From: Dehalococcoidia bacterium
GTDB lineage: Bacteria; Chloroflexota; Dehalococcoidia; Lucifugimonadales; UBA1123
Assembly (NCBI GenBank): GCA_965261525.1
Contig: OZ253472.1
Span: 2,852,601-2,916,600 of the forward strand
Direction: 5' to 3'
DNA: 64,000 nt
Positions 7,155-57,474 of this stretch are shown here, piece after piece. Within the stretch, counting starts at the first letter, position 1; every line of letters begins with the position of its first letter. The notes below the pieces were generated by a model, which was not told the DNA's origin, did no database searches, and saw only the letters and a list, made by a program, of their open reading frames with translations. The translations under genes and the position numbers were made by a program.

Positions 7155-8441
7155 TTGTCCATAGAAGATACCGGCAGAAGGCCGGAGCGCGACAGGCAGC
7201 GGAGCCCGAGACCATCCCCGCGCGAACAGCCCCCGCTGCGACCCTGGTCGGCGTTCGCGTTTCGAGACTATCGAATCCTCTGGCTGTCGTCGGTGGCCGG
7301 GCTGGTCACTATGCAGATGCGGATGCTTATTACCGCCGTCTGGCTCTACGATGTTACCGGTTCAGGACTTCAACTTGGTCTCCTCGGAGTCGTGCAGTTG
7401 GTCGTGCAACTCCCCGCGATTCTGTTTGGCGGCGCGCTGGCCGACCAGTGGGACCGCAAGAAACTGATAGCCGTCACGCAGTCTTTCAGCTTCATCTTCA
7501 TTGGACTAATGACGCTGCTGGTCATGTTCGACAGGCTGGAGCCGTGGCACGTGTACGCGGTTACGGCAATTTTAGGTGTTACCAGCGTCTTGGGCGGACC
7601 GGCGCGTTCCGCCATCACCGCGAACATAGTTCCCAGGTCACACTTGATGCACGCTGTAACATCGAACACCGCCACATTCCAGGTTGGAGCGATTGCCGCG
7701 CCTCTGATGTTCGCGATCATCATAGAAACGCTTGGAACAACCGCTGTGTTTGCGGTATCCGCCATCTTCGCCTTGCCTGCCTCTCTACTGCCCATCTTCA
7801 TAAGGGTCAGGATGGAACACTCCGACAGACAGGGTTCGATGTTCCAACGGATATGGGAGGGAGTCGTTTACGTCAAGTCGCATCCGATTCTACCCGGACT
7901 GTACATAATGGATATCGGTGTCACAATAGTGAGCTTCTACCGCCAGATATTGCCGCTGATTGCGGACAGGATGTTCAAATCGGGGGCGGGGACTGTCGGA
8001 GTAATGACAGCCGCGAATTCGCTTGGTGGAGTAGCAGGCACGTTCGCGGTGCTGTTCATGGCGAAGTACAGGGCGAAGGGCATGATAGTCCTATACGCCA
8101 CGCTGGTTTACGGCATACTGCTGATAGCGTTCGGATTTAGTTCCTACCTCTGGCTCGGATCAATCATATTGATCGGACTGGGCGCTACGGACGCAATTGG
8201 GATGACTACGCGGCAGACAACCGTGCAGCTAACAACTCCCGACCATATGCGCGGCCGCGCGGTCAGCGCTCACTCCGTAAGCGCCATGAGCGCCAACAAT
8301 CTCGGAACGTTCGAGGTAGGTTTCATGTCCGAGCAGATAGGCGCTGAAAGAACGATGATACTCGGAGGCTTCATCTCGCTGGTTGTAGTAGTAGCGGTTT
8401 GGCGCCTTGTGAGGGGGATACGGGAGTATCGTTACCCGTAG
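7155..8441 (+). CDS. MFS transporter
   Basis: ORF track, 428 aa with a TTG start. About 12 hydrophobic segments are visible. The N-terminal segment WLSSVAGLVTMQM...GGALADQWDRKKL is typical of the MFS_1/EntS-like group. Confidence 0.75.
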   Translation: MSIEDTGRRPERDRQRSPRPSPREQPPLRPWSAFAFRDYRILWLSSVAGLVTMQMRMLITAVWLYDVTGSGLQLGLLGVVQLVVQLPAILFGGALADQWDRKKLIAVTQSFSFIFIGLMTLLVMFDRLEPWHVYAVTAILGVTSVLGGPARSAITANIVPRSHLMHAVTSNTATFQVGAIAAPLMFAIIIETLGTTAVFAVSAIFALPASLLPIFIRVRMEHSDRQGSMFQRIWEGVVYVKSHPILPGLYIMDIGVTIVSFYRQILPLIADRMFKSGAGTVGVMTAANSLGGVAGTFAVLFMAKYRAKGMIVLYATLVYGILLIAFGFSSYLWLGSIILIGLGATDAIGMTTRQTTVQLTTPDHMRGRAVSAHSVSAMSANNLGTFEVGFMSEQIGAERTMILGGFISLVVVVAVWRLVRGIREYRYP

Positions 8442-8642
8442 GCGTGTGGTACCCTCACCCAACCGACTTCTTCCAGATAGGAACTCTCTTTACGACCATG
8501 TCGTTGGCATTCAGATCGAGATGTCGGTGCCGCTCCTTTACGGGATCAGGATATACACAGATTTGCCACGGTGAACCACCGCTCGTCTTTCAGAGTAGGG
8601 GATATACCCTGAAAATTGGTAAATGTGAGGAACGTATTCATA

Positions 8643-8671
8643 TTGACCTACACTTGTGTAGGTTTTACTAT
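8643..8671 (+). promoter_or_regulatory. Candidate sigma70-like promoter with an embedded 16-nt palindrome upstream of the GHKL operon
   Basis: TTGACC (8643-8648), 17 nt, then TACTAT (8666-8671). The perfect inverted repeat cctacac-tt-gtgtagg (8647-8662) lies in the spacer. An AGGAA ribosome-binding site precedes the ATG at 8712. Confidence 0.3.
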
Positions 8672-8711
8672 TGCCACGTTAGAATGCCTTGATAGGAACA
8701 GGAAAATCCTC

Positions 8712-10568
8712 ATGCAATCAGACTGGCACTTCAGACCTCACATTCCCGGCGCCTCAATTCGTGAGCCGATTGCTGGAGCGTTCTTCGCCAGCGATGCAGT
8801 AAGCGAACCTGGAGAGGCACTGGTACGTGAAGGCATCCAGAACTCCCTTGACGCTACCCCTGACGGTAGCCAGACGTTTGTCCGAATCTCTCTAGCTAAC
8901 GGGAGCGATGCTTTAACTTGGGATCAGGTAAGTCAGTATTACGCCAGCGCGAATATACACTACACAGCGGATGGCAGCGGCTTGCGAAGCGATGATATTC
9001 TCACACAGGATGATGCTTGCTCAGTACTGATCTTTGAGGATTTTGGTACCCATGGTTTACAGGGAGACCCTGCGACACCTTACCCGCCAAAAGACAAGAG
9101 TGAGAACAACTTCTTTCATTTTTTTCGAGCGGAAGGACGTTCTGATAAGGATTCCAGCAAGCGCGGCAGTTGGGGGCTTGGAAAGGACACTTTCTTTCGG
9201 GCCAGCAGAGTTAACACCATATTCGGTCTGACTGTAAGGGATGACGACCATCGTCGCCTACTTATGGGAAAAGCCATCCTGAAGTCTCATTATGCAGGTG
9301 ACGATTACTGTCAGGACGGTTATTTCGGAGTTCTACCTGACGCCGATAGTCATCTGGTTATGCCGATTGAAGACAACAACCACATTGAACTGTTTCTGAA
9401 TATGTTCCATTTAGAACGACAGAATGATCCTGGTTTGTCGGTGATTGTGCCTTGGCTTGACTCAGAAATCACCCAGGCGGCGATAATTCAAGCTGTCCTT
9501 CGCAATTACTTCTACTCCATCTTCTCAGGCGATCTTGACGTAATGGTGAAAACATCGGGCGTAGAGACGTTACTTGACAAGAATAGTCTGTTGAGCGAAG
9601 CAAATAAACTCACAGAGGATCAGAGCATTCTTCCGTTGATTGAGTTGGCACAGTGGGCAGTATGTGGTGATGCAGATGATTCCCGATACACCATCAACGC
9701 CCCAGACTCAAAACGTGCTTGGGATTGGAATAGGAATCTATTTTCTGATGACACTCTTCAGAAAATAAGTGCCAAGTTGCAAAACAAGGAACGTATAGCA
9801 ATACGTGTTCCAGTGACAGTTCGTAAGAAGGGTGGTTTGCAACAGCAGTCTTATTTCGACGTGTACGTGATAACTGACGACTCAAACGAGCGCGCCCGTC
9901 CAGTGTTTATACGGGATGGCATCATTGTCTCTGACGTGCGTGCGCCTTTTATGCGTGGAATAAGAGCTTTGGTGGTTGTCAACGACCCACCGCTGTCTGA
10001 ATTCCTGCGCCAGGCCGAAAATCCTAGCCACACCATGTGGCAAGGCCAGCAGCTAAAAGCAGACTACGTGTCCGGGGTATCGGACTTGAGATTTGTTGTC
10101 CAGAGCGTTAGAAGGATTCACGATATGTTGATAGCGGAGGACAAGAAACAGGACAAACGTCTGCTCTCCGATATCTTTCCGATACCCGGCAAAGGTGGGA
10201 AGCAGGAAAAGCCACCACCTCCATCTCCTACCTATTTCAGCATCAACCCCGTAACCGGAGGTTTCCGTGTTGTACGTGGGAAGGTAAGCCTGTCAGCACA
10301 TAGTCTGGTGGAAATGCATGTGGCATACGATGTCCGTAGAGGCAGTCCTCTGAAGAGATACCGCAATGACGACTTCCAGTTGAACGAGGCCCCTATCTCC
10401 TACAAGTATAAGGGTGTAGAGGTGATAGAGGCTGCTGAAAACAGAATGGTTATTCGTATCAGTGATCCCGAAGATTTCTATATCACAGTGACTGGATTTG
10501 ACCGGAATCGCCAAGTATATGTACGAGTTGACAAAGGGGATGGAACCAATGCCGATTCGACGGATTAA
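8712..10568 (+). CDS. GHKL (Bergerat-fold, MORC/Hsp90/MutL-like) ATPase with a C-terminal region of about 400 aa of unknown fold (gene A of the island operon)
   Basis: ORF track (8616..10568); the likely start is ATG 8712 (MQSDWHF). N box: EALVREGIQNSLDA. G1 box: VLIFEDFGTHGLQG. G2 box: KRGSWGLGKDTFF. Confidence 0.65.
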   Translation: MQSDWHFRPHIPGASIREPIAGAFFASDAVSEPGEALVREGIQNSLDATPDGSQTFVRISLANGSDALTWDQVSQYYASANIHYTADGSGLRSDDILTQDDACSVLIFEDFGTHGLQGDPATPYPPKDKSENNFFHFFRAEGRSDKDSSKRGSWGLGKDTFFRASRVNTIFGLTVRDDDHRRLLMGKAILKSHYAGDDYCQDGYFGVLPDADSHLVMPIEDNNHIELFLNMFHLERQNDPGLSVIVPWLDSEITQAAIIQAVLRNYFYSIFSGDLDVMVKTSGVETLLDKNSLLSEANKLTEDQSILPLIELAQWAVCGDADDSRYTINAPDSKRAWDWNRNLFSDDTLQKISAKLQNKERIAIRVPVTVRKKGGLQQQSYFDVYVITDDSNERARPVFIRDGIIVSDVRAPFMRGIRALVVVNDPPLSEFLRQAENPSHTMWQGQQLKADYVSGVSDLRFVVQSVRRIHDMLIAEDKKQDKRLLSDIFPIPGKGGKQEKPPPPSPTYFSINPVTGGFRVVRGKVSLSAHSLVEMHVAYDVRRGSPLKRYRNDDFQLNEAPISYKYKGVEVIEAAENRMVIRISDPEDFYITVTGFDRNRQVYVRVDKGDGTNADSTD

Positions 10569-11301
10569 CTTCACCGGACGGCAGCGGCTACGTGCGGAAG
10601 ATGTAGAGATTAAACTTTACGATGATATGATACCACCCAAATGTGAGATAGCTAATCTCAACTTTGAGGGATATGAATTCCCATCTGATGCCCTAGTTTA
10701 CGTGGAGTCATATCGTCAGACTTCGTATATGCGGTTTTCTTGTGGAACAGTCGGTAATCTGAAGATTCCTGATAATCTGACGTTGGACGAGTTCGACTCA
10801 CCCGATGCCATAAAGTTTCGAGTAAAGGTGACCTCGGCCTCGCATCCAACAAAGGGGCAGTTACTAGCTGAGTTAAGTGGCATCTCCGATAGGAGAATAG
10901 AATCCCTTCTTACGGTTGTGCCGGATTCAAACCTTGATCACGAAGTTTTCCGTGTGGACTTCACAGATGAACCCATTCTCCTGATCAACGCGAAACTGGA
11001 CAGGTGGAAAGAGGTAGCCACTGAGCCTGTCTTTACCTCGCTGGTGTATCCTGCCGCCCTCCGGACTATTCTGACGAGAGTATTGTGTATTGAAGAACAT
11101 ACTGATACCGAGGACCCAGACGATTGGCACTCCAGATGGCTCAGATTTGCGAAAAATAATCTGGGTGCCTCTGACCCTCCCATTGAAACGGATATTGAAG
11201 TTCGTGATGAATGGATTGACAATACGGTAGCCGCTTTCTGTAAGAATAATCAGGTGTACCATAGCTTTGCCAAGAATTTTGATGATGGATACGGTCAATG
11301 A
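10540..11301 (+). CDS. Hypothetical protein (gene B), no family recognised
   Basis: ORF track (10498..11301). The likely start is ATG 10540 or 10549 (MEPMPIRRINFTGRQRL), overlapping the end of gene A. The stop overlaps the gene C start as ATGA (11298-11301). Confidence 0.6.
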   Translation: MEPMPIRRINFTGRQRLRAEDVEIKLYDDMIPPKCEIANLNFEGYEFPSDALVYVESYRQTSYMRFSCGTVGNLKIPDNLTLDEFDSPDAIKFRVKVTSASHPTKGQLLAELSGISDRRIESLLTVVPDSNLDHEVFRVDFTDEPILLINAKLDRWKEVATEPVFTSLVYPAALRTILTRVLCIEEHTDTEDPDDWHSRWLRFAKNNLGASDPPIETDIEVRDEWIDNTVAAFCKNNQVYHSFAKNFDDGYGQ

Positions 11302-11993
11302 AACTCCGTAGATTGAATGAAAACGGTATTGACCAGTTCGACCAGTTCAGGGCATCCCCGTTGAGGCAGCCAGAACATTTGCTAACTATCGTTCATGATT
11401 CATCTACTTCTGATGTGGTCGGTGTTGATATCGAAGTACAACCGCAGGAACTTTCGACACGGTTCACTGTCGGCAAGTACCTGAATGAGCTACTTGATGG
11501 AACTCCAATTCCGGGCTGGGATATGGACAAGGGGATATGGACGTGGCTTACAGCATTCTATTTCGATCAACTTTGTCCACCCGGCAGCCGACCCGGTGAA
11601 AGAGCCAGATGGGTGCCCGCGGTAGGAGACTTCCGCAAGTACTACCGTCATCTCTTGGCAGGACCTTATCAAATCTATCACGCACATCGAGACAATCCGC
11701 ACCGTGTTCTTGCTTTACTGGCAGGACCTCCGCATCAACCAGGTGAGATTGCTGAACAACTAGCGTCGCGTCAGGAGTTGGTGACTAACAAGTCTGCGAT
11801 GGAGGCGGCAACGACTCTATATATAGACCCAGTGACAGATTCCCCAAAACTCGGCGCGGCCGGTAAGGTTAATGGTGGCGCGCGCAGGCTTGCAGATATA
11901 CTCAACCAGCTGGATCTGACTTGGGACCTGTACATACTGGAGTCCGACGAGTTACTCGAGTTACTCCCTGACGAATTCGATAGGTTCAAGTAA
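11298..11993 (+). CDS. Hypothetical protein (gene C), no family recognised
   Basis: ORF track, 231 aa. The stop overlaps the dcm start as TAATG (11991-11995). It is soluble and Trp/His-rich (GIWTWLTAFYFDQL, YYRHLLAGPYQIYHAHRDNPH). Confidence 0.6.
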   Translation: MKLRRLNENGIDQFDQFRASPLRQPEHLLTIVHDSSTSDVVGVDIEVQPQELSTRFTVGKYLNELLDGTPIPGWDMDKGIWTWLTAFYFDQLCPPGSRPGERARWVPAVGDFRKYYRHLLAGPYQIYHAHRDNPHRVLALLAGPPHQPGEIAEQLASRQELVTNKSAMEAATTLYIDPVTDSPKLGAAGKVNGGARRLADILNQLDLTWDLYILESDELLELLPDEFDRFK

Positions 11994-13576
11994 TGAGTAA
12001 CCCAATACCTGTCATTGATGTTTTTGCGGGATGTGGTGGCTTGGGGGAAGGATTCAGTGCTTTGAAACGGAACGAAATATTCCCATTTGACGTTCGGCTC
12101 TGTATCGAAAAGGACTCGGCTCCCATAAATACTCTCTGGACGCGCGTTTTCTATCATCAGTTCAAGACGACCCGGCCCCCAGACAGCTACTACGAATATG
12201 TTAGTGGTGAGATTGACCGCAATGAATTGTGCCTACGACATCCGAGGGAAACACACGAGGCAACCTTGCGTTGTCTACAAATTGAACTCGGGCATTCTGA
12301 AGTAAATGAAGAAATTACCACTGATAACATTAACAGGGCTACAGCAAACGCGAGTGATTGGGTTCTCATCGGCGGACCACCGTGTCAAGCGTATTCGACT
12401 ATCGGCAGGGTCAAAAACCAGTCATTGGAACACTATAACCCCGATACCGACATTCGCTTCGGGCTTTACCGGGAATACCTCAAAATCATCGGTGCTCACT
12501 GGCCATCTGTATTCGTAATGGAAAACGTGAGAGGACTGTTGAGTGCATCATATCGGCAAGAATCTATATTTAACCGTATGCTCACTGATTTACGCGAACC
12601 CGCTCATGCCCTTGAATTAGACGGTATAGCTACATCACATGCCCATCAATACCGTCTCTACTCGGTTGTTAGCAACGCTTCGTTCTTGGACAATATGGGC
12701 AAAGTTCCAATTCCGACAGAATTTATCGTCAGATCAGAAGAATACAGAGTTCCACAAGCTCGTCATCGAGTGATCATTTTGGGAGTACGTGATGACATAC
12801 TTGCTAAACCCGAACCGCTGTTACCAGCAACGGAGAAGGTCAATGCCAGCGCAGTGTTGAACGGTCTGCCCCGAGTTAGAAGTGGATTGTCCCGTCAGGA
12901 CAGCCCCGATAAATGGATCAAGGCCGTCAAAGAAATCGAAGAACAGCCTTGGTGGGACGATATAGAGACATCTGTTCAACTTAGGATTCGCAATACACTA
13001 ACAGATCTGAAAGTTCCAGATGACGACAGAGGGAATTTGCGTTTTTTGAATAGCCCTTCAACTTGTGAGTACCGGCCTGACTGGTTTGAGGATGAGCGCC
13101 TGTCAGGAACGCTGAACCACAACGCCAGAGGTCATCGGATTGATGACCTCTGGCGATATCTTTTTGCTGCGTGCTTCACGGAAGGTAGCAACCAAAAGTT
13201 TCGGATTGGCGACTTTCCACCCGGACTGAGACCTCGACATCGGAACATAGAAAGCGCTCTTGTTAGCGGCACTTTTGCCGACCGATTCAGCGTACAGCCC
13301 AAGAACGCTCCGTCTCGGACTGTAGTTAGTCACATTCGCAAGGATGGGCATTACTATATCCACTATGACCCAACCCAGTGTCGCAGTCTCACAGTTCGGG
13401 AGGCAGCTCGTCTGCAAACCTTCCCTGACAATTATTTCTTTGAGGGCAGTCGAACTGATCAATATGGACAAGTCGGAAACGCAGTGCCCCCATTGTTGTC
13501 GCTTCAGATTGCAGGGCGCGTAGCAGAACTACTGGAACGATGGCGAGTGCAACGAAATGGACAGTCTGTCTCCTGA
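11993..13576 (+). CDS. dcm: DNA (cytosine-5)-methyltransferase
   Basis: ORF track, 527 aa. Motif I VIDVFAGCGGLGEGF; IV LIGGPPCQAYS; VI VFVMENVRGLL; VIII QARHRVIILGVR; IX RSLTVREAARLQTFPD; X GNAVPPLL. There is a large variable region between motifs VIII and IX. Confidence 0.9.
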   Translation: MSNPIPVIDVFAGCGGLGEGFSALKRNEIFPFDVRLCIEKDSAPINTLWTRVFYHQFKTTRPPDSYYEYVSGEIDRNELCLRHPRETHEATLRCLQIELGHSEVNEEITTDNINRATANASDWVLIGGPPCQAYSTIGRVKNQSLEHYNPDTDIRFGLYREYLKIIGAHWPSVFVMENVRGLLSASYRQESIFNRMLTDLREPAHALELDGIATSHAHQYRLYSVVSNASFLDNMGKVPIPTEFIVRSEEYRVPQARHRVIILGVRDDILAKPEPLLPATEKVNASAVLNGLPRVRSGLSRQDSPDKWIKAVKEIEEQPWWDDIETSVQLRIRNTLTDLKVPDDDRGNLRFLNSPSTCEYRPDWFEDERLSGTLNHNARGHRIDDLWRYLFAACFTEGSNQKFRIGDFPPGLRPRHRNIESALVSGTFADRFSVQPKNAPSRTVVSHIRKDGHYYIHYDPTQCRSLTVREAARLQTFPDNYFFEGSRTDQYGQVGNAVPPLLSLQIAGRVAELLERWRVQRNGQSVS

Positions 13577-13967
13577 ACATCGCAGTTGGAATATGTCCCG
13601 AATACGGAGTGTAAATACCCGTCCTGAACTGACGGTTCGCTCTCTGCTCCACCGTATGGGCTACCGATTCCGTCTGCACAGAAAAGATCTTCCTGGTCGT
13701 CCCGACATAGTTCTACCAAGCCGACGCACAGCTATTCTGGTGCATGGTTGCTACTGGCATCGTCATCACGGGTGCAAGTTAGCCTATAAGCCCAAGAGTA
13801 ATCGCGAATTTTGGGAATCTAAGTTCCGTGAGAACATCAATCGAGACTACCAGAAGTGTCGCCAACTGCGCGAGCTCAACTGGAATGTCATTATAGTATG
13901 GGAATGTGAGACTAAGGCCCCTGAGATTCTCGCCGAACGGCTGAGCAGAGAGATACCAGCCCGATAA
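13557..13967 (+). CDS. vsr: Very-short-patch repair endonuclease
   Basis: ORF track, 136 aa. RSWNMSRIRSVNTRPELTVRSLLHRMGYRFRLHRKDLPGRPDIVL...ILVHGCYWHRH...IIVWECE. The gene overlaps the dcm 3' end by 20 nt. Confidence 0.9.
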   Translation: MDSLSPEHRSWNMSRIRSVNTRPELTVRSLLHRMGYRFRLHRKDLPGRPDIVLPSRRTAILVHGCYWHRHHGCKLAYKPKSNREFWESKFRENINRDYQKCRQLRELNWNVIIVWECETKAPEILAERLSREIPAR

Positions 13968-13989
13968 CAGGGCTCAGTGCCCATTCTTC

Positions 13990-14271
13990 CTACGCCACCA
14001 AATGCGACTCCTCCGCGTCTTTCAGCGCCGCCTCTATCGCGCGCACCAGTTCGCGCGCCGATTTCGCCGAAAGCTCCACAGGCACGCGAGCGTCCAGTCC
14101 CAGGCTCTCGTTGACGAAATCTATGTTGAGCGTATGGTCCGACTGCGAATGGAAGGGGTGGTCGTAGTAAACTCTCGCTCTGGTGAGCTTGAACCAGCCT
14201 TTGTGTCCCCGGCCGCTGCCCTCTATCTCCGCGTGTTCAGTAACGTATGTACACATGACAGGTCTCTCCAT
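13990..14271 (-). CDS. Small conserved hypothetical protein (resembles the MCTY...EGSG.G.KGWF...HTLNIDF family; the DUF name is uncertain)
   Basis: ORF track, 93 aa. Host-like GC content. Convergent with vsr. Confidence 0.45.
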   Translation of the reverse strand: MERPVMCTYVTEHAEIEGSGRGHKGWFKLTRARVYYDHPFHSQSDHTLNIDFVNESLGLDARVPVELSAKSARELVRAIEAALKDAEESHLVA

Positions 14272-16758: not shown

Positions 16759-17094
16759 TTACCTGAGAGTCTGGCTGGCCGCTCTCTCTACAGTCTCGGC
16801 CAGCCAGGCATTAAGGCTTTTGCCTTCCGATTTGGCCGCCGCGGTCGCGGCGCGGTGAACGGCCGGTGCAACCCTGAGAGGAATCTGCCCAGAGAAAGGC
16901 TTGTCCGGATCGCGTCCCCTCTGGGCGCACACGGCCAAATAGTCGTCTATGGAAAATCGGAACTCTTCCTCAAGTTGCTCAACGGAGGTTCCTTCGAATA
17001 CTATAACATCGCGGGTATCCACCACCTCACCGTGAAAGACGCTCGCGTCCGCGTCGAAGGTCACCGTTGCCCGATAGCCTTTATACTCCATCAT
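16759..17094 (-). CDS. hicB: HicB-family antitoxin
   Basis: ORF track (16759..17145). The likely start is MMEYKGY at 17092-17094, overlapping the hicA stop (ATGA). YKGYRATVTFDADASVFHGEVVDTRDVIVFEGTSVEQLEEEF is followed by a C-terminal RHH-like SLNAWLAETVE. Confidence 0.8.
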   Translation of the reverse strand: MMEYKGYRATVTFDADASVFHGEVVDTRDVIVFEGTSVEQLEEEFRFSIDDYLAVCAQRGRDPDKPFSGQIPLRVAPAVHRAATAAAKSEGKSLNAWLAETVERAASQTLR

Positions 17095-17345
17095 GGCTCT
17101 ATCCCTGCCTCCCGCAAGAATCTCCGCATCGCTTCCACAGCCCACTTTCTTGTCTCTCTTTCAGGGTGCGGTCTATGGAAGTGAGCGGCAACGTCATTCA
17201 ATTCGATATATACTCTGGAGCCTGCCCGCTCCTCGATGTACGCTCCGCGGGCCAAAAGCATTGATTCAATTTCATCCCAGCGAATCCCTGATTGCGTAGG
17301 TCTTCTGAAGATTGCTCCTAATGTCCTGCGATGTCTCCTTCTCAT
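17091..17345 (-). CDS. hicA: HicA-family mRNA interferase toxin
   Basis: ORF track, 84 aa. Small and basic. IRWDEIESMLLARGAYIEERAGSRVYIELNDVAAHFHRPHP. Directly upstream of hicB. Confidence 0.75.
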   Translation of the reverse strand: MRRRHRRTLGAIFRRPTQSGIRWDEIESMLLARGAYIEERAGSRVYIELNDVAAHFHRPHPERETRKWAVEAMRRFLREAGIEP

Positions 17346-18438: not shown

Positions 18439-19170
18439 TCAAATAAAAGGCGGTCTTATAGAATCGTCAGCGCCTTCAGCGATAAGCGTTCGTGCAAGTT
18501 CAGAATAGCCCGCGATAGTTGCTCTGTATGTGGGTGTCCAACCTCGGTGATCTATAGCATTTATATCTGCTCCAGTAGATATAAGATACTTTGCTATTTC
18601 AATGTCTCCTACTTCAGCAGCAAAATGTAGCGGAGTACGTCCATGAATTGAATCCTTTGAATCAATATCAGTGCCTGCTGAGATGAGAGCCTTCGCTATC
18701 TCCGAATGTCCATTCAGAATTGCATTATGCAATGGAGTACGACCATCATAGAAAGTTTCAATATTGGTGTCTGCGCCAGCAGATAGTAGATCCTTTGTTG
18801 TTTCAGCATCCCCCGCTTTGACAGCGAATTGTAGGGGTGTTCGCCCACTAAATACATCCTCCGCATTAACGTCAGCACCTGCTGAGATGAGAGCCTTCGC
18901 TATCTCCGAATGTCCTCTCAGAATCGCACTATGTAAAGGTGGACGCCCACCACCATCTCTCACGCTAACATCAACTCCTCCAGATATGAGCATTTTCACA
19001 ATATCGATATGTCCGTCCCAGGCTGCCATGTTCAGTAGTGTATTGCCATCATTGTCCATCTTGTTGAGATCAGCGCCAGCAGACAACAAAATCTGTACAA
19101 TTCTAGTATGTCCATTCTTCACTGCTGTATGCAAAGGAATTCTGCCATCCTCATCTTTAGCATTGACGTT
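18439..19170 (-). pseudogene. Ankyrin-repeat protein, 3' portion cut off by the IS630-family insertion
   Basis: ORF track (18439..19134; the first codon is really Leu). The frame stays open upstream as LNWYNVNAKDEDGRIPLHTAVKNGH up to the IS end. There are tandem 33-aa ANK repeats (TPLH.A...GH..I...LI..GAD.N). Confidence 0.7.
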
Positions 19171-19171
19171 A

Positions 19172-20340
19172 TACCAATTCAGCTTGATGAGGCCGGGTAG
19201 TATTCAGGTAGCCGCTGAATGTTCCGCTTGATCCAATCCCAACCTACCAGCGACTTTACTCGTTCGGGATCCGATTCCAGCCTGCTCAGGCAGGTATTCA
19301 CCGCCTCAACCTTCTCATCTATACTCCCATAGACCCTGCCCTCTACCCATCTGCGAACCTCCTTGAACACCCGCTCGGCAGGATTAAGCTCAGGACTATA
19401 GGCAGGCAGCGTTATCGTCTTCATCCCCGCTATACTCCTCACCAACTCGCTGCGATGACTGCCCGCTCCGTCCCACACAAGCGCTCTCACTTCCGTGTAT
19501 CGCCTAACGCTCAGCGCCGCGCGCGCCACCGTCTCAGACCTCATCGAGTCTATCCACGCCCACTCCGGTTTGCCTCTGCCAAAGTCCACCACCAGGAACA
19601 GGTACTTCCACTCATAAACCAACTGCAACCGCTGAACCACCTTCACCCCACGAACTCCCCACACCCGGCGCACCATCCCGCGAAGTCCGACTCGCATCTC
19701 ATCGGCAAACCCGATCAGCGTTCCCGAACTAACTCCCGCTCTCCGAAGGGAACGGCCAAGCCCCCCTTTTTCCACCGCTCCTGAGCGTTCAGGTCCGCCT
19801 TCTCATGCCGGGGGCTGGGAACCTTCGGTGAACATCCCAGCCGCTCAAGCACACTGTATATGCTGTTCCCCTTGAACCTCACACCGTACTCCGACTCCAC
19901 CCAATCGGCGATCTCACCAGCAGTCCTGAAACGTCCACTTCCAATCTCCCCAACCAATCTCCGTTCCTGAGACTCGCTCAGAAACCTCGGCTGACCCACT
20001 CCTCCCATCTTGCGGGACAGGACCTCGTCCAGACCGCCTTCTCTATACCACCCAACCCATCTCTGCGCGTTCCGGCAGTGAACACCCACAGCTTCAGCCG
20101 CCGCTTTGATCTGCCAGCCGCGACGTATCAGCCACAGCGCGCGCAGCCGGGTACGAATATAGACATCTCTCTGGAACTGGTAGGCTTCCTTCAGCGCTTC
20201 CGGTGTGTCTTGCTCATGCCATGCCATCCTGAACGGGCGTCCAATCATCTGCTACCCTCCAACGCCTGAGTTGGCTTGAGCATAAATGAAATATCAGACT
20301 TCGACCAGCTCCTCTACCCTCACATCAGGATGAAATGGTA
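19172..20340 (-). mobile_element. IS630-family insertion sequence (about 1.17 kb)
   Basis: Imperfect terminal inverted repeats: TACCAATTCAGCTTGATGAGG (19172-) and the reverse complement of 20340 downward, TACCATTTCATCCTGATGTGAGG. The same short T-A-T run is present at both junctions (19170-72, 20339-41). Two overlapping transposase ORFs lie inside. Confidence 0.8.
19179..20248 (-). CDS. IS630-family transposase, orfA (19715..20248, HTH) plus orfB (19179..19775, DDE) joined by a -1 frameshift
   Basis: ORF track. orfA has the winged-helix/HTH segment LRALWLIRRGWQIKAAAEAVGV. orfB has a DDE triad context: GFADEM, VWDGAGSH, YSPELNPAERVF. The overlap contains the A5G6 run. Confidence 0.75.
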
Positions 20341-21077
20341 TTAGCACCTTCGGATATCAGTGCCCTCACTGTTCCTGTGTCGCCATTCCATACAGCTATG
20401 TGTAGGCCCGTTGTGCCAACAAACACTCCGATTGGTTGAATAAGTGCGCCGTGCGAAATCAATATCCGTATAATCTCGGCGTGGCCCTTCTGAGTCGCCC
20501 AGTGGAGGGGTGTAGTGTCAAAATCATCGGTTGCATTAACGTCAGCTCCAGCAGAAATTAGTGTCTGCACCGTTTCAATACGACCTATCTGTACCGCCCA
20601 ATGTAGGGCTGTAGCGCCAATCGAGTCATCAGTTGCGCCAAGGTCAGCACCGGTACTAGCCAGAAGATACACAATTTCGTTGTGCCCCTCTTGAACAGCC
20701 GTTATCAGGGCAGTACAACCACGATTATCTCTCACATTAACCTCAGCGCCCGCAACAACAAGAACCCATACAGTTTCAGCATGTCCTTTCCAAGCCGCCC
20801 AATAGAGGGGTGTATAACCGTTCACAGTTACCGAATCAATCTCAGCGCCGGCGGAGATAAGGTCTTGTACGATTTCGGTGCGACCATAGCCCGCCGCCAC
20901 GTGCAAGGGCGTATTGTTACGGTGGTCTTTTGCATGAATGTCTGCGCCAGCAGAGATATACTCTCTTACTTTTCTGACATCCCCCTTCTGAGCCGCACGG
21001 TGTAAGGGAATGTCAGAAACGAATATCTTGACTTTCGTCCATACCCGTCTTAAGGAACATCCTAGGCTTCCCATCAT
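20325..21077 (-). pseudogene. Ankyrin-repeat protein, 5' portion; reads 4 codons into the IS and stops
   Basis: ORF track, 250 aa. About 7 ANK repeats. It ends ...ALISEGAN-TISS-stop, and the last codons are IS sequence. Confidence 0.7.
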
Positions 21078-54569: not shown

Positions 54570-55466
54570 TTAGACGTCGTCTAGGTCATCCAAGTCGTCC
54601 AGATCATCCAAGTCGTCGTCGAGACTATTATCGCGACGATTATGACGACTGCCGTTACCCCGAAGCATCCAAGTCAGCATGAAAGTGACCAAGCATCCGA
54701 CGGCAAGAATGGGAAGCGCCACGATGAGGTAGGACAATCCTTCTCCCCAGAATGGCGGTGGCTCGACTGTGAGAGATTCACCTATCACTGGCTGCGTGGC
54801 GTCGAGCAGATCCTGCGCGTCCCATGGACGGCCCTCGTCCACCAGTTTGGATGAGAAGTCCAGCAATGGAGCTATGCTCGGAAGCGCATCGGCGTCGGCG
54901 GCTGCCCTGAATTTGGCTACTCGCTCATTCACTTGGTGAGCCATTGAGTGCAGTGCGATGGACTCTCTGCGATAGTCGAATCTGTCATCTTGTCCAAATT
55001 CCACAACCCGAATTGTGCGGGATCTGGCGACCTCCCGCATATAGGGGTCTGCTTCATCAGAATTGTCCGTTACGGGGATAGATTCCCTGTATTTGGGTAC
55101 TACTCCCTCCATCTCCACGACTGCGGCGACCGTTTCGTCTATCTCTACCTCTCTGCCAAGATGGATAGTCCCGCCGTTGATTCGCCAATCTACCTGGTCG
55201 AGTTCAGTCCTGCCTTTCCATTTGCCGGCGTCGCCCAGTCCCGGTTCTATCCTGCATTTCACGAATATCCTACTGCCTATATCAACGAACTGCGGGATGT
55301 CGTTGAGAAAATCGCCATCGCCGATTTTGAATGAACAGCGTGGTTGGGACGTGGACTGTGCGCTGGCGATTGAGAGCGAGAACCAAGTGAGCGCTATCAG
55401 CGCAAAAGACACAGCCACGATTCTCAGAGACACTCCAAAAGCGCGTCGGATTTCGAGGAATGTCAT
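54570..55466 (-). CDS. Hypothetical bitopic membrane/secreted protein with an acidic DDL-repeat tail
   Basis: ORF track, 298 aa. N-terminal signal/anchor: LRIVAVSFALIALTWFSLSIASAQS. C-terminal TM: LSYLIVALPILAVGCLVTFMLTWML. The tail is DDDLDDLDDLDDLDDV. Confidence 0.55.
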   Translation of the reverse strand: MTFLEIRRAFGVSLRIVAVSFALIALTWFSLSIASAQSTSQPRCSFKIGDGDFLNDIPQFVDIGSRIFVKCRIEPGLGDAGKWKGRTELDQVDWRINGGTIHLGREVEIDETVAAVVEMEGVVPKYRESIPVTDNSDEADPYMREVARSRTIRVVEFGQDDRFDYRRESIALHSMAHQVNERVAKFRAAADADALPSIAPLLDFSSKLVDEGRPWDAQDLLDATQPVIGESLTVEPPPFWGEGLSYLIVALPILAVGCLVTFMLTWMLRGNGSRHNRRDNSLDDDLDDLDDLDDLDDV

Positions 55467-57474
55467 TCAGAGTATCTCCATCAGTACTTCGGCCAAGCGT
55501 TGAACCTGTCGGGAAGTTGCTTGAGGCTAATTTCGGTGTTGCTTCTGTAATAGCGAGATAGCAGCCAGTCGTTTTCCGGCTGCCAGTAGAGCAGGATGTG
55601 GAACGGAGAGGAATCCGGCACGTCTCCCTCTCCTGCTTGATTTCCCAATCTCCCCCAAAAGCGGAGGTCATATTTTCTCTGGGCAATGGAAAGTCTCTGA
55701 GCGCTGCGCTTGAACCGGCTACAAGCGCGGTTCCGGCCTTTACTTCGACCCTGAGATTGGTCATGGGGTTGATAGTGTATCTGAGGGCGTTGTGAAGTTC
55801 GTCGAGCATAGCGTTTCTGGCGGCGACGCGCGCCTCCGCTTCTTCCGCGCCTTCTTCTCCTGATCTAATAGGGAGCGAACTGTTTTCGGAGCGGCTTATC
55901 CAGTCCTCGAACGAAGGCATCAACCACATACGCGAGAATTCCCGTTCATGCCACTCCTGCTGCATATCGCCTTTTATCCCGCCCACAATGCCGTCCAGTG
56001 TCTGTACCCTATTCCTGAGATCGTTCAATATTCGCCGAATTTCACGTCTTCGGTTATTCACATTTTCTTCATGCTCTTTGCCGGTGCGGACCCACATGAA
56101 TATGAAGAAAATTATGACGATAACTATCAGTGGCAATCCAATACCTGCCAGGACAACTATTAGATCCGAAAGGTTGGAATCTTCAGAGAAGAGGATTTCA
56201 GTGTAAAACAGCGCTGTCACAATAGCGAGTACCACACCAATCAACGCTGCCCCGACTATCAGAAAGATGAAAGAGCCTTTACGCTGAGGGCCAACTCTTC
56301 TCAACCTTGTGAGGGCCACTCTCGAGTTAGTCAGTTCATCGTTGGTTTTGGTCAATTCCTTTCTGGCTTCGTCAAATTGCTTTCCAGCCGATTCGTTCCT
56401 GAGTGATTCGGGAGATTCCTCGGAGATAAGCGGCTTTACCTTCTCCTGGAGTTCGTTGTTGCTGGCGTCCAGAGCGCCGTCAATCTCAGGCTCTGTCTTT
56501 CTTATCCAGCTTACCCTATCCTGATCAACGGGTCCGCATCCGACAAGTATCTGGGATATAGAGGAGTTTTCGATTGTATCGAGCAACTCGTTTACATCGT
56601 AGAAACTCTCCCCGGTTACTGTCGTGCATGTCAGCAAAGTTGCGATAGTGCCGGACGCCCAACGGTTGAAATTTTCAAGGTTCTGTGTCCTTTCGAATCC
56701 GCTCCCATCTATAAAGAAGAATCGGTCGAATGGACGATTCTCCATATTGAAGCGTTCGTCACCCGATGGCATCTTGCTTTCTAGTACGCCAAACGTATTG
56801 AGTCCGTGTAGAAGGTTAAAGTCTCCAGCGCCTTCCGTCGGATCGGGTGGAAATAGGCCGAATCCAAACTGGAGAGGTTCTTCAGTGTCAATCACCCTGT
56901 CGCCGCGAGGGGAGGATATGAAATTCCCAACGACATTGTGTATCCGGTTCGCCAGTTCCTTTATGATTATCTCTCCCGACTCAACGGCTACCGTGCTGGA
57001 AGTCATGCCCGTCATGCCGAAGGCAAAGACTATCTTCACGCGCGGCTCCACAAGCCGTCCACCTATTACGGGGAGCAGTTCCCACACCGCGTCGAATATG
57101 TCTCTGCGGCGCAATTCGACTTGGAGTCGTATCATTGGTGGATGATTCAGGATTTCATCTTCCCAGCGGACATTCTTTTCCATGTCCATCTCGGTGACCA
57201 ATTCAGCGAAGCGTTCTCTCTCCAGCGACCGCTTCTGCAGTCGGATGTCGTGCATTGTGACTTTGAGGGTCTTCAGCATGTTCTGGAGTTCATCTATCTC
57301 TCGCTGGTCGTGGTCTATGAATACGACACCGCGAATGCGGCCTTCGAGCGACTCGCATAGGTAGGGAATGAAGTCGGCAGAAGAGTGGCCGCCCCCTACA
57401 ATGATAATATCGGGTTCTTTCACGCTGTTGTCAGTCGTCACCTGAAAGCCCCTTTGTCTCCGGTGGAATATCAA
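55282..57474 (-). CDS. Large hypothetical protein with two central TM segments. The N-terminal domain is possibly a divergent tubulin/FtsZ-like or Rossmann-like NTP-binding fold (very tentative)
   Basis: ORF track, 730 aa. EPDIIIVGGGHSSADF resembles a T1/Rossmann loop and VFAFGMTGMTSS weakly resembles the GGGTG(S/T)G T4 loop. TM segments: GSFIFLIVGAALIGVVLAIVTALFY and LIVVLAGIGLPLIVIVIIFFIFMWV. Coiled-coil-like stretches are present. The last 60 or so codons overlap the next gene. Confidence 0.5.
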   Translation of the reverse strand: MIFHRRQRGFQVTTDNSVKEPDIIIVGGGHSSADFIPYLCESLEGRIRGVVFIDHDQREIDELQNMLKTLKVTMHDIRLQKRSLERERFAELVTEMDMEKNVRWEDEILNHPPMIRLQVELRRRDIFDAVWELLPVIGGRLVEPRVKIVFAFGMTGMTSSTVAVESGEIIIKELANRIHNVVGNFISSPRGDRVIDTEEPLQFGFGLFPPDPTEGAGDFNLLHGLNTFGVLESKMPSGDERFNMENRPFDRFFFIDGSGFERTQNLENFNRWASGTIATLLTCTTVTGESFYDVNELLDTIENSSISQILVGCGPVDQDRVSWIRKTEPEIDGALDASNNELQEKVKPLISEESPESLRNESAGKQFDEARKELTKTNDELTNSRVALTRLRRVGPQRKGSFIFLIVGAALIGVVLAIVTALFYTEILFSEDSNLSDLIVVLAGIGLPLIVIVIIFFIFMWVRTGKEHEENVNNRRREIRRILNDLRNRVQTLDGIVGGIKGDMQQEWHEREFSRMWLMPSFEDWISRSENSSLPIRSGEEGAEEAEARVAARNAMLDELHNALRYTINPMTNLRVEVKAGTALVAGSSAALRDFPLPRENMTSAFGGDWEIKQERETCRIPLRSTSCSTGSRKTTGCYLAITEATPKLASSNFPTGSTLGRSTDGDTLNDIPRNPTRFWSVSENRGCVFCADSAHLVLALNRQRTVHVPTTLFIQNRRWRFSQRHPAVR

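Follow-up and report, generated by a model that had tools for sequence, protein, structure and literature searches.

Operons in which GHKL ATPases of the paraMORC type accompany restriction-modification (R-M) genes, including the cytosine methylase Dcm and the endonuclease Vsr, were described in 2008 (Iyer, Abhiman & Aravind, PMC2292703). The paraMORC2 group is marked by a conserved ExxxH motif, and most of the operons in that study also encode a nuclease that can be recognised as such, along with a superfamily II helicase (PMC2292703). A second precedent is PDC-M33, a three-gene candidate listed in PADLOC; it came out of a 'guilt-by-embedding' search as one of 145 candidates lying inside BREX, DISARM or type I R-M systems (Payne et al., bioRxiv 10.1101/2024.01.29.577857). 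GHKL-Shedu (VcSduA, paraMORC3), whose defence role has been validated by experiment, shows that anti-phage activity can be under the control of a GHKL ATPase (PMC12137116). Here, we describe a five-gene cassette at positions 8442 to 13989 of a 64,000-nucleotide stretch of contig OZ253472.1 from a Dehalococcoidia bacterium (the window). The cassette encodes a predicted GHKL ATPase (gene A), two proteins without a family assignment (genes B and C), Dcm and Vsr. We put at an even chance the reading that it is a horizontally acquired, restriction-modification-like defence module. The cassette is not categorically new, since systems of this general kind are on record: PDC-M33, and the R-M operons that join a paraMORC ATPase to Dcm and Vsr.

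Coding content of the cassette

The cassette, of approximately 5.5 kb, lies between an MFS transporter gene that ends at position 8441 and a convergent DUF6295 gene (13990 to 14271), and contains an operon of 5.3 kb made of five overlapping plus-strand open reading frames (ORFs). As seen from the coordinates, gene B (10549 to 11301) and gene C (11298 to 11993) have a common ATGA at 11298 to 11301, gene C and dcm (11993 to 13576) have a common TAATG at 11991 to 11995, and dcm and vsr (13557 to 13967) overlap by 20 nucleotides (nt). The initial annotation had proposed a single, translationally coupled operon with exactly these three overlaps, and this was borne out, the overlaps also being kept in relatives. 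Two of its start sites changed. The longest frames in the ORF list span 8616 to 10568 for gene A and 10498 to 11301 for gene B; alignment with homologs places the start of A at the ATG at 8712 (MQSDWHF...), just preceded by AGGAA, and that of B at the ATG at 10549 (MPIRR...), resulting in an A/B overlap of 20 nt. The overlap of 29 nt given before holds when B is read from the ATG at 10540, but not from the start set by its homologs. The former start of A at 8643 was discarded, the TTG found there being the first hexamer of a promoter-like site.

Gene A (8712 to 10568) encodes a protein of 618 amino acids. Profile searches returned no Pfam, NCBIfam, PHROG or PDB sequence match, and the Pfam GHKL models, including HATPase_c_3, found nothing at E values up to 1 in the window protein or in 38 A-family members. 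Its assignment as a GHKL ATPase therefore rests on the predicted fold and on invariant ATP-binding residues. The AlphaFold model (predicted local distance difference test [pLDDT] score, 84.3) is organized as a GHKL domain, an S5/transducer domain, a helical segment, a Pro-rich disordered linker (approximately residues 478 to 503) and a C-terminal beta domain of approximately 100 residues (509 to 608), with a beta-sheet plus helix block at residues 362 to 435. Foldseek matched the model, at probability 1.00, to Topo VI-B (E = 3.7e-9), GRP94/Hsp90, GyrB/ParE ATPase fragments (TM-score on target length, 0.46), MutL LN40 (E = 8e-7; TM-score on target length, 0.49 to 0.52) and the SMCHD1 ATPase module, in alignments that run from the Bergerat fold through the S5/transducer domain. 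Across the N-box, G1 and G2 of 38 sequences, the ATP-site columns E40, N44, D47, D110, G115, G118, G152, G155, G157 and K158 were invariant, and the three GHKL motifs quoted earlier for this protein are present and fall on invariant columns. By this model, gene A is predicted to encode a GHKL ATPase of MutL/MORC/Hsp90-like fold with an intact ATP site, carrying a GHKL plus S5 module of the MutL/MORC type. Placement in the MORC family proper (HATPase_c_3 type) was rejected, since no profile matched. Where the S5 domain ends, an ExxxH motif (E436-N-P-S-H440) is likewise invariant; it is kept in very distant proteins from Rhizobium and Enterococcus (PDC-M33A). Because of this motif, A is most likely an ATPase of the paraMORC2 type.

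The B protein (250 amino acids) found no match in Pfam, PADLOC, NCBIfam, PHROG or PDB sequences. Its relatives amount to 2,097 among cluster representatives at 50% identity, nearly all of them stand-alone proteins of approximately 250 amino acids. The invariant residues of the family are R11, G66, P168, W197 and W222; no acidic or histidine residue is invariant, and this set does not look catalytic. The C protein (231 amino acids) has at least 1,386 homologs and is the most conserved of the three. It matched nothing in Pfam, NCBIfam, PHROG, PADLOC or PDB sequence searches. Its model is mainly helical (pLDDT, 92.9), and Foldseek found no structural relative for it in the PDB or in BFVD, with a best E value of approximately 4 in both. 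The C family has an invariant set rich in Trp, Tyr, Arg and His (W81, W83, W105, Y115-Y116-R117-H118, H130, R158-Q159-E160, R196-R197 and W209-D210), with conserved motifs that include YYRHL and SRQE. This pattern would fit a pocket that binds nucleic acid or a methyl group, or else an active site of a kind not yet recognised. A DUF6339 label on some C homologs was marginal (E values at or above 0.09) and was not used. We also considered B and C as paralogs, and B as a relative of the C-terminal domain of A; both relationships were tested and rejected.

The last two genes are readily assigned. The dcm product, a cytosine-5 (C5) DNA methyltransferase of 527 amino acids, matches PF00145 (E = 4.6e-38) and TIGR00675 (116 bits against a cut-off of 100.65), and exhibits the motifs FAGCGG, GGPPCQ, ENV, QARHR and GNAVPP, among which the catalytic PCQ and ENV are present. 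The vsr product, a very-short-patch-repair T:G mismatch endonuclease of 136 amino acids, matches TIGR00632 (143.5 bits against a cut-off of 97.85) and PF03852 (E = 3e-28). Overall, the initial annotation's reading of the coding content was sustained: A as a GHKL ATPase with three motifs, B and C as unassignable, and dcm and vsr as canonical members of families whose cut-offs they exceed. The modelling and Foldseek comparison that it had recommended found GHKL/S5 relatives for A, but no structural relative for C. Among PADLOC models, the best match of the dcm product was the DISARM methylase DrmMII (E = 4.5e-90; 300 bits, against at most 215 bits for the generic type II methylase models). No other DISARM gene lies near dcm, and A, B and C match no Drm model in PADLOC.

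Three further sequence features of the cassette are also reported here. The promoter-like site TTGACC-17-TACTAT (8643 to 8671, plus strand), located by a consensus scan 41 nt 5' of the ATG of A, is a pattern match only, such sites being no commoner in the region than in shuffled sequence. Overlapping it, an inverted repeat at 8645 to 8664 with an 8-bp stem (GACCTACA...TGTAGGTT) could be a candidate operator. Within the dcm coding region, a perfect 14-nt inverted repeat with a 5-nt loop lies at 13123 to 13155 (CGCCAGAGGTCATC / GATGACCTCTGGCG), and was flagged on both strands by the terminator scan.

Comparison with described GHKL systems

The paraMORC operons described in 2008 resemble the cassette in several respects (PMC2292703). 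Both have the GHKL plus S5 module with ExxxH at the C-terminal end of S5 (E436 and H440 in A), both are sporadically distributed in a manner consistent with lateral transfer, and the neighbours of the triad across its loci agree with those listed for the paraMORC genes, namely Dcm, Vsr, HNH and restriction endonuclease-fold nucleases, superfamily II helicases and AIPR. The difference lies in the remaining subunits. Unlike most of those operons, the window has neither a superfamily II helicase nor a recognisable nuclease, and carries two unassigned proteins instead. We found no characterisation of the A-B-C triad in the literature, and to that extent the earlier proposal of an undescribed system stands; as to its general type it does not, given the paraMORC operons with Dcm and Vsr (PMC2292703) and the match of A to part of PDC-M33A.

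The relationship with PDC-M33 was examined through distant triads, obtained by tblastn of A against plasmids. On the mobilizable (MOBQ) Enterococcus faecalis plasmid pJF3A-4253-2 (locus L085, 5695 to 10458), an AIPR gene is followed by an overlapping triad encoding 639, 288 and 262 amino acids, which matches PDC-M33A (E = 4.8e-47, model positions 3 to 479) and PDC-M33B (E = 2.3e-11). Its third gene gave a weak DUF6339 match (E = 0.0095), as do some C-family members. A Rhizobium triad, which has no methylase nearby, contains clear homologs of B and C (hhalign probability, 98.7 to 98.8%) and is intermediate. The likeness between the window and PDC-M33 consists of this intermediate, of a collinear arrangement in which a GHKL protein of approximately 620 to 640 amino acids is followed by two overlapping genes for approximately 250 to 290 amino acids, and of the ExxxH motif of A, which is also found in the Enterococcus plasmid member. 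Nevertheless, the window clade is coupled to Dcm and Vsr, whereas the one PDC-M33 locus examined lies by AIPR and has no methylase. The PADLOC search called for by the initial annotation matched A to PDC-M33A (E = 1.2e-26) only over model positions 30 to 287 of 627, the GHKL half, but found no model for B or C at E values up to 1; likewise, the B and C profiles aligned with their Enterococcus counterparts at an hhalign probability of at most 0.1%. Since A matches only the GHKL half and B and C match nothing in PADLOC, the cassette is best placed as a divergent sister of PDC-M33 and not as a member that PADLOC can call.

Other systems are more remote. The HEF_HK/Response_reg_2 modules (Bellieny-Rabelo et al. 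2021, PMC8011034) similarly combine a C5 methylase, a GHKL protein, a small partner and then Vsr, and also occur in Verrucomicrobia, but they have one partner protein where the cassette has two; neither PF19191 nor PF19192 matched A, B or C of the window, nor 38 A-family and 38 C-family members. VcSduA is the nearest validated GHKL defence protein; in contrast to A, which lacks such a domain, it has its GHKL domain fused in a single protein to a DUF4263 PD-(D/E)xK nuclease. DISARM was rejected, only the methylase matching (DrmMII), with no DrmA helicase, DrmB (DUF1998) or DrmC/DrmE in A, B or C. A classical type II R-M system was rejected as well: the cognate methyltransferase is present, but A, B and C contain no PD-(D/E)XK, HNH, PLD or GIY-YIG endonuclease (B by sequence searches only). 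Three-gene restriction of the BsuMI/LlaJI type, which belongs to McrBC-like AAA+ systems, was set aside, no such PADLOC or Pfam match being found here. A paper reappraising Dnd (PMC10853773) proved unrelated.

Recurrence, partners and insertion of the triad

To follow the triad beyond the window, one genome per species was scanned, and 153 C-encoding loci were found among 185,579 species representatives (approximately 0.08% of bacterial species). Eighty of these loci were retained for a hidden Markov model (HMM) scan, and the 51 with at least 2.5 kb on both sides of the triad were used for neighbour counts. The distribution is sporadic and includes Chloroflexota, Acidobacteriota, Planctomycetota, Verrucomicrobiota, Nitrospirota, Pseudomonadota, Actinomycetota, Myxococcota and other phyla. 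Throughout the 80 loci, the order and strand of A, B and C were constant; in the well-flanked C loci, A was present in 48 of 51 and B in 50 of 51. A and B overlap by 1 to 35 nt in 58 of 69 related loci, and B and C by 4 nt in 42 and by 1 nt in a further 13 of the same 69, so that overlapping junctions are a trait of the whole family, more than chance. Pairwise distances were also strongly correlated within the triad (A-B, 0.87; A-C, 0.80; B-C, 0.79). Overall, A, B and C form one obligate, co-evolving and translationally coupled triad.

The triad is recurrently linked to cytosine methylation. Of the 51 loci, 39 have a C5 methylase within 5 kb and 26 have one within 500 bp; a truncated one at locus L064 brings the total to 40 (78%). 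Vsr is found within 2.5 kb in 33. Three arrangements were observed: A-B-C-Dcm-Vsr on one strand, as in the window; A-B-C convergent with Vsr-Dcm; and Dcm-A-B-C-Vsr, with the triad between the methylase and Vsr. The wide occurrence of the second, in many phyla, implies that all five genes were transferred as one unit. Thus the co-occurrence asked about in the initial annotation was found, mostly with Dcm and usually with Vsr, and so was the methylase link, in three gene orders; the notion of a methylation-linked core held as regards recurrence, but had to be loosened because the methylase is exchangeable and about one-fifth of the loci have no C5 methylase. The exchange is apparent from the distances of Dcm, which track those of the triad weakly (Pearson, approximately 0.2; Spearman, approximately 0; Mantel P of at most 0.01), suggesting that the methylase is a recurrent but exchangeable partner.

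This behaviour raises an alternative, namely that A, B and C act in defence or abortive infection on their own, without reading methylation, with Dcm and Vsr as a separate, exchangeable neighbour that could be co-mobilised or could protect the DNA of the element from other restriction systems. In favour of this, the triad co-evolves internally and not with Dcm, 11 of 51 loci have no C5 methylase and are found instead next to Mrr, HNH or helicase genes or those of type I or type III systems, and the distant triads pair with AIPR or are without any methylase. Such a module fits less well with a C5 methylase in 78% of loci in three independent gene orders, with triads embedded between Dcm and Vsr, and with the start/stop overlap of C and dcm in the window, and chance co-mobilisation explains the methylase linkage poorly. 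We regard a self-contained module as rather unlikely.

The C5-methylase-free loci are informative about partners. At locus L073 (2396 to 7805), PD-(D/E)XK and Mrr modules precede A-B-C on one strand, and at L033 an Mrr gene is convergent with C. An HNH_2 protein and a small ORF precede the triad on the same strand at L069 (4057 to 8720), as do an N6/N4 methylase and a ResIII helicase at L071 (797 to 8717). L083 has AbiEii/WYL and HsdM near the triad, and L056 an N6/N4 methylase, so that three loci (L071, L083 and L056) have N6/N4 or HsdM methylases in place of the C5 enzyme. The others have transposases or nothing informative nearby; DUF4420-SLFN is also among the neighbours. These associations suggest that the triad combines with a range of nuclease or methylase partners, and the genomic context of related triads is defence-like. 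The two Mrr loci would also suit a modification-dependent, type IV-like module, in which A, B and C recognise modified foreign cytosines and recruit a linked Mrr, HNH or Vsr protein, the specificity of Dcm lying outside the recognition of the triad. The lack of a recognisable nuclease in the triad itself is consistent with this, and the conserved aromatic residues of C may be too, such residues often being found in methyl-reader pockets. However, Mrr occurs in only 2 of the 51 loci, and since most triads are closely coupled to a host C5 methylase, such a module would risk self-targeting; we consider a type IV-like function very improbable.

The frequent presence of Vsr bears on a different, non-defence alternative, in which the triad is a MutL-like accessory for very-short-patch repair or for the maintenance of 5-methylcytosine (5mC), with A stimulating Vsr in the way MutL does in E. 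coli and with B and C helping to find T:G mismatches. The domain order of the A model (GHKL, S5, flexible Pro-rich linker, C-terminal domain) is that of MutL, and its gene is linked to those for a methylase and for the Vsr nickase; vsr follows C directly in the Verrucomicrobiota-type arrangement. There is a precedent in the established functional interaction of MutL and Vsr in E. coli (cited in PMC2292703). The resemblance to MutL, as it acts with Vsr and MutH in methyl-directed repair, has clear limits: there is no HMM-detectable sequence similarity, the C-terminal domain of A is a small beta domain of approximately 100 residues without the MutL endonuclease motif, and the cassette is mobile and rare and has no MutS partner. 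Dcm-Vsr pairs are common without any A-B-C, whereas the triad is rare (153 of 185,579 species). Some triads have no Dcm or Vsr and lie next to Mrr, HNH, type I or III R-M, AbiE or AIPR genes, which also speaks against it, as do the sporadic spread, the behaviour of the cassette as an insertion and the embedding of relatives in defence systems. A repair role is, in our judgement, quite improbable.

A fourth gene of approximately 190 to 230 codons, absent from the window, lies directly 5' of A on the same strand in 13 loci (L002, L013, L017, L018, L027, L031, L039, L043, L049, L057, L061, L063 and L077). Its product has a winged-helix-like C terminus (YPRF..GWSK...YQ.YL.LAWLR..GLV..HGRQGY) and may be a regulator; the L039 member, which was scanned, matched nothing in Pfam or PHROG. 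No relative of C turned up in PLSDB plasmids or IMG/VR viral contigs, so there is no evident carriage of the clade by plasmids or phages.

In the window, the cassette has the features of an insertion. The GC content is 0.47 to 0.51 across 9 to 14 kb, compared with approximately 0.57 in the flanks. Relatives of the window MFS transporter (68 to 70% identical) are found on marine metagenome contigs (L086 to L092), in which the order LLM-LarB...MFS is followed by convergent DUF6295 and LipB genes. There, the gap between the MFS and DUF6295 genes is only 25 to 75 bp, and A, B, C, Dcm and Vsr are all absent, while in the window the cassette fills exactly this gap (8442 to 13989). The cassette is thus a low-GC insertion at a site that is empty in related genomes, and it was horizontally acquired. 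Direct repeats flanking the island were searched for and none was found.

Three kilobases downstream of the cassette, a toxin-antitoxin pair is encoded on the minus strand (HicB, 16759 to 17145; HicA, 17091 to 17345). It is followed, also on the minus strand and within 18439 to 21077, by an IS630-like transposase (DDE_3, 19179 to 19775; HTH, 19715 to 20248), which is flanked by ankyrin-repeat ORFs at 18439 to 19134 and 20325 to 21077; the GC skew there is strongly negative (-0.33), and the element looks like an insertion splitting an ankyrin-repeat gene. A second low-GC stretch (0.48 at 56 to 57 kb) coincides with a minus-strand ORF of 730 amino acids (55282 to 57474) that has a weak DUF2207_C match only and may be another acquired gene.

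Proposed mechanism and meaning

The proposal of an R-M-like defence module starts from the architecture of the cassette, its methylase linkage and its mobility, as documented above. Dcm would mark host DNA with 5mC, and Vsr would repair the T:G mismatches that arise from 5mC deamination. A dimer of A might form an ATP-gated clamp, by analogy with MutL, MORC and Topo VI-B. The more variable B is a candidate adaptor or recognition subunit, and the highly conserved C, with its abundance of Trp, Tyr, Arg and His, is a candidate reader of DNA or of its methyl state, or a new catalytic subunit. An A2-B-C complex would then engage unmethylated incoming DNA and block or cut it. These biochemical steps are modelled on the behaviour of MutL, MORC and Topo VI-B and on the R-M context of the paraMORC operons (PMC2292703).

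Several observations weigh against this proposal. As the initial annotation had already remarked for nucleases and helicases, we could recognise neither of these, nor any known DNA-binding domain, in A, B or C (for B, in searches at the sequence level), and no nuclease in the triad accounts for the proposed cutting or blocking activity. Dcm does not co-evolve with the triad, so that any sequence specificity shows no visible matching. In the 11 of 51 loci without a nearby C5 methylase, a classical restriction of unmethylated DNA would be toxic to its own host, barring a methylase gene at some other place in the genome. Vsr almost always accompanies Dcm, which alone could explain part of the Vsr linkage. 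The window is no classical defence island, its neighbours being metabolic genes, with only HicAB and the IS element 3 to 6 kb away; as to the defence-island context that the initial annotation asked about, relatives have defence-type neighbours. Finally, we found no experimental work on the A-B-C family or on PDC-M33 in the literature.

A more specific version, which we think unlikely, takes the triad as an ATP-gated DNA clamp, either nuclease-free or with a new nuclease, that reads the C5 methylation state. C, as a protein of new fold, would recognise cytosine in its methylated or unmethylated form, and A, acting like MutL, would license a linked nickase (Vsr, or Mrr or HNH elsewhere) on unmarked DNA. 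If true, methyl-directed repair would here have been turned to defence, and the system would parallel, in prokaryotes, the partnership between MORC and DNA methylation in eukaryotic silencing.

Overall, the cassette is a credible, as yet uncharacterised R-M-like defence candidate, built on a mobile and conserved methylase-linked GHKL triad. Many candidates of a similar sort exist; as a compact operon of 5.3 kb, this one is directly testable. If the cassette is active, a widespread family, with approximately 2,000 clusters of B at 50% identity, would join the methylation-linked immune systems, and its effector would be no known nuclease. Of the three core proteins, C at least has a fold without a match in the PDB and in a viral structure library. 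The cassette, if active, would also tie a MutL/MORC-like ATPase directly to bacterial cytosine-5 methylation, and may thereby bear on the origin of the link between MORC and DNA methylation in eukaryotes.

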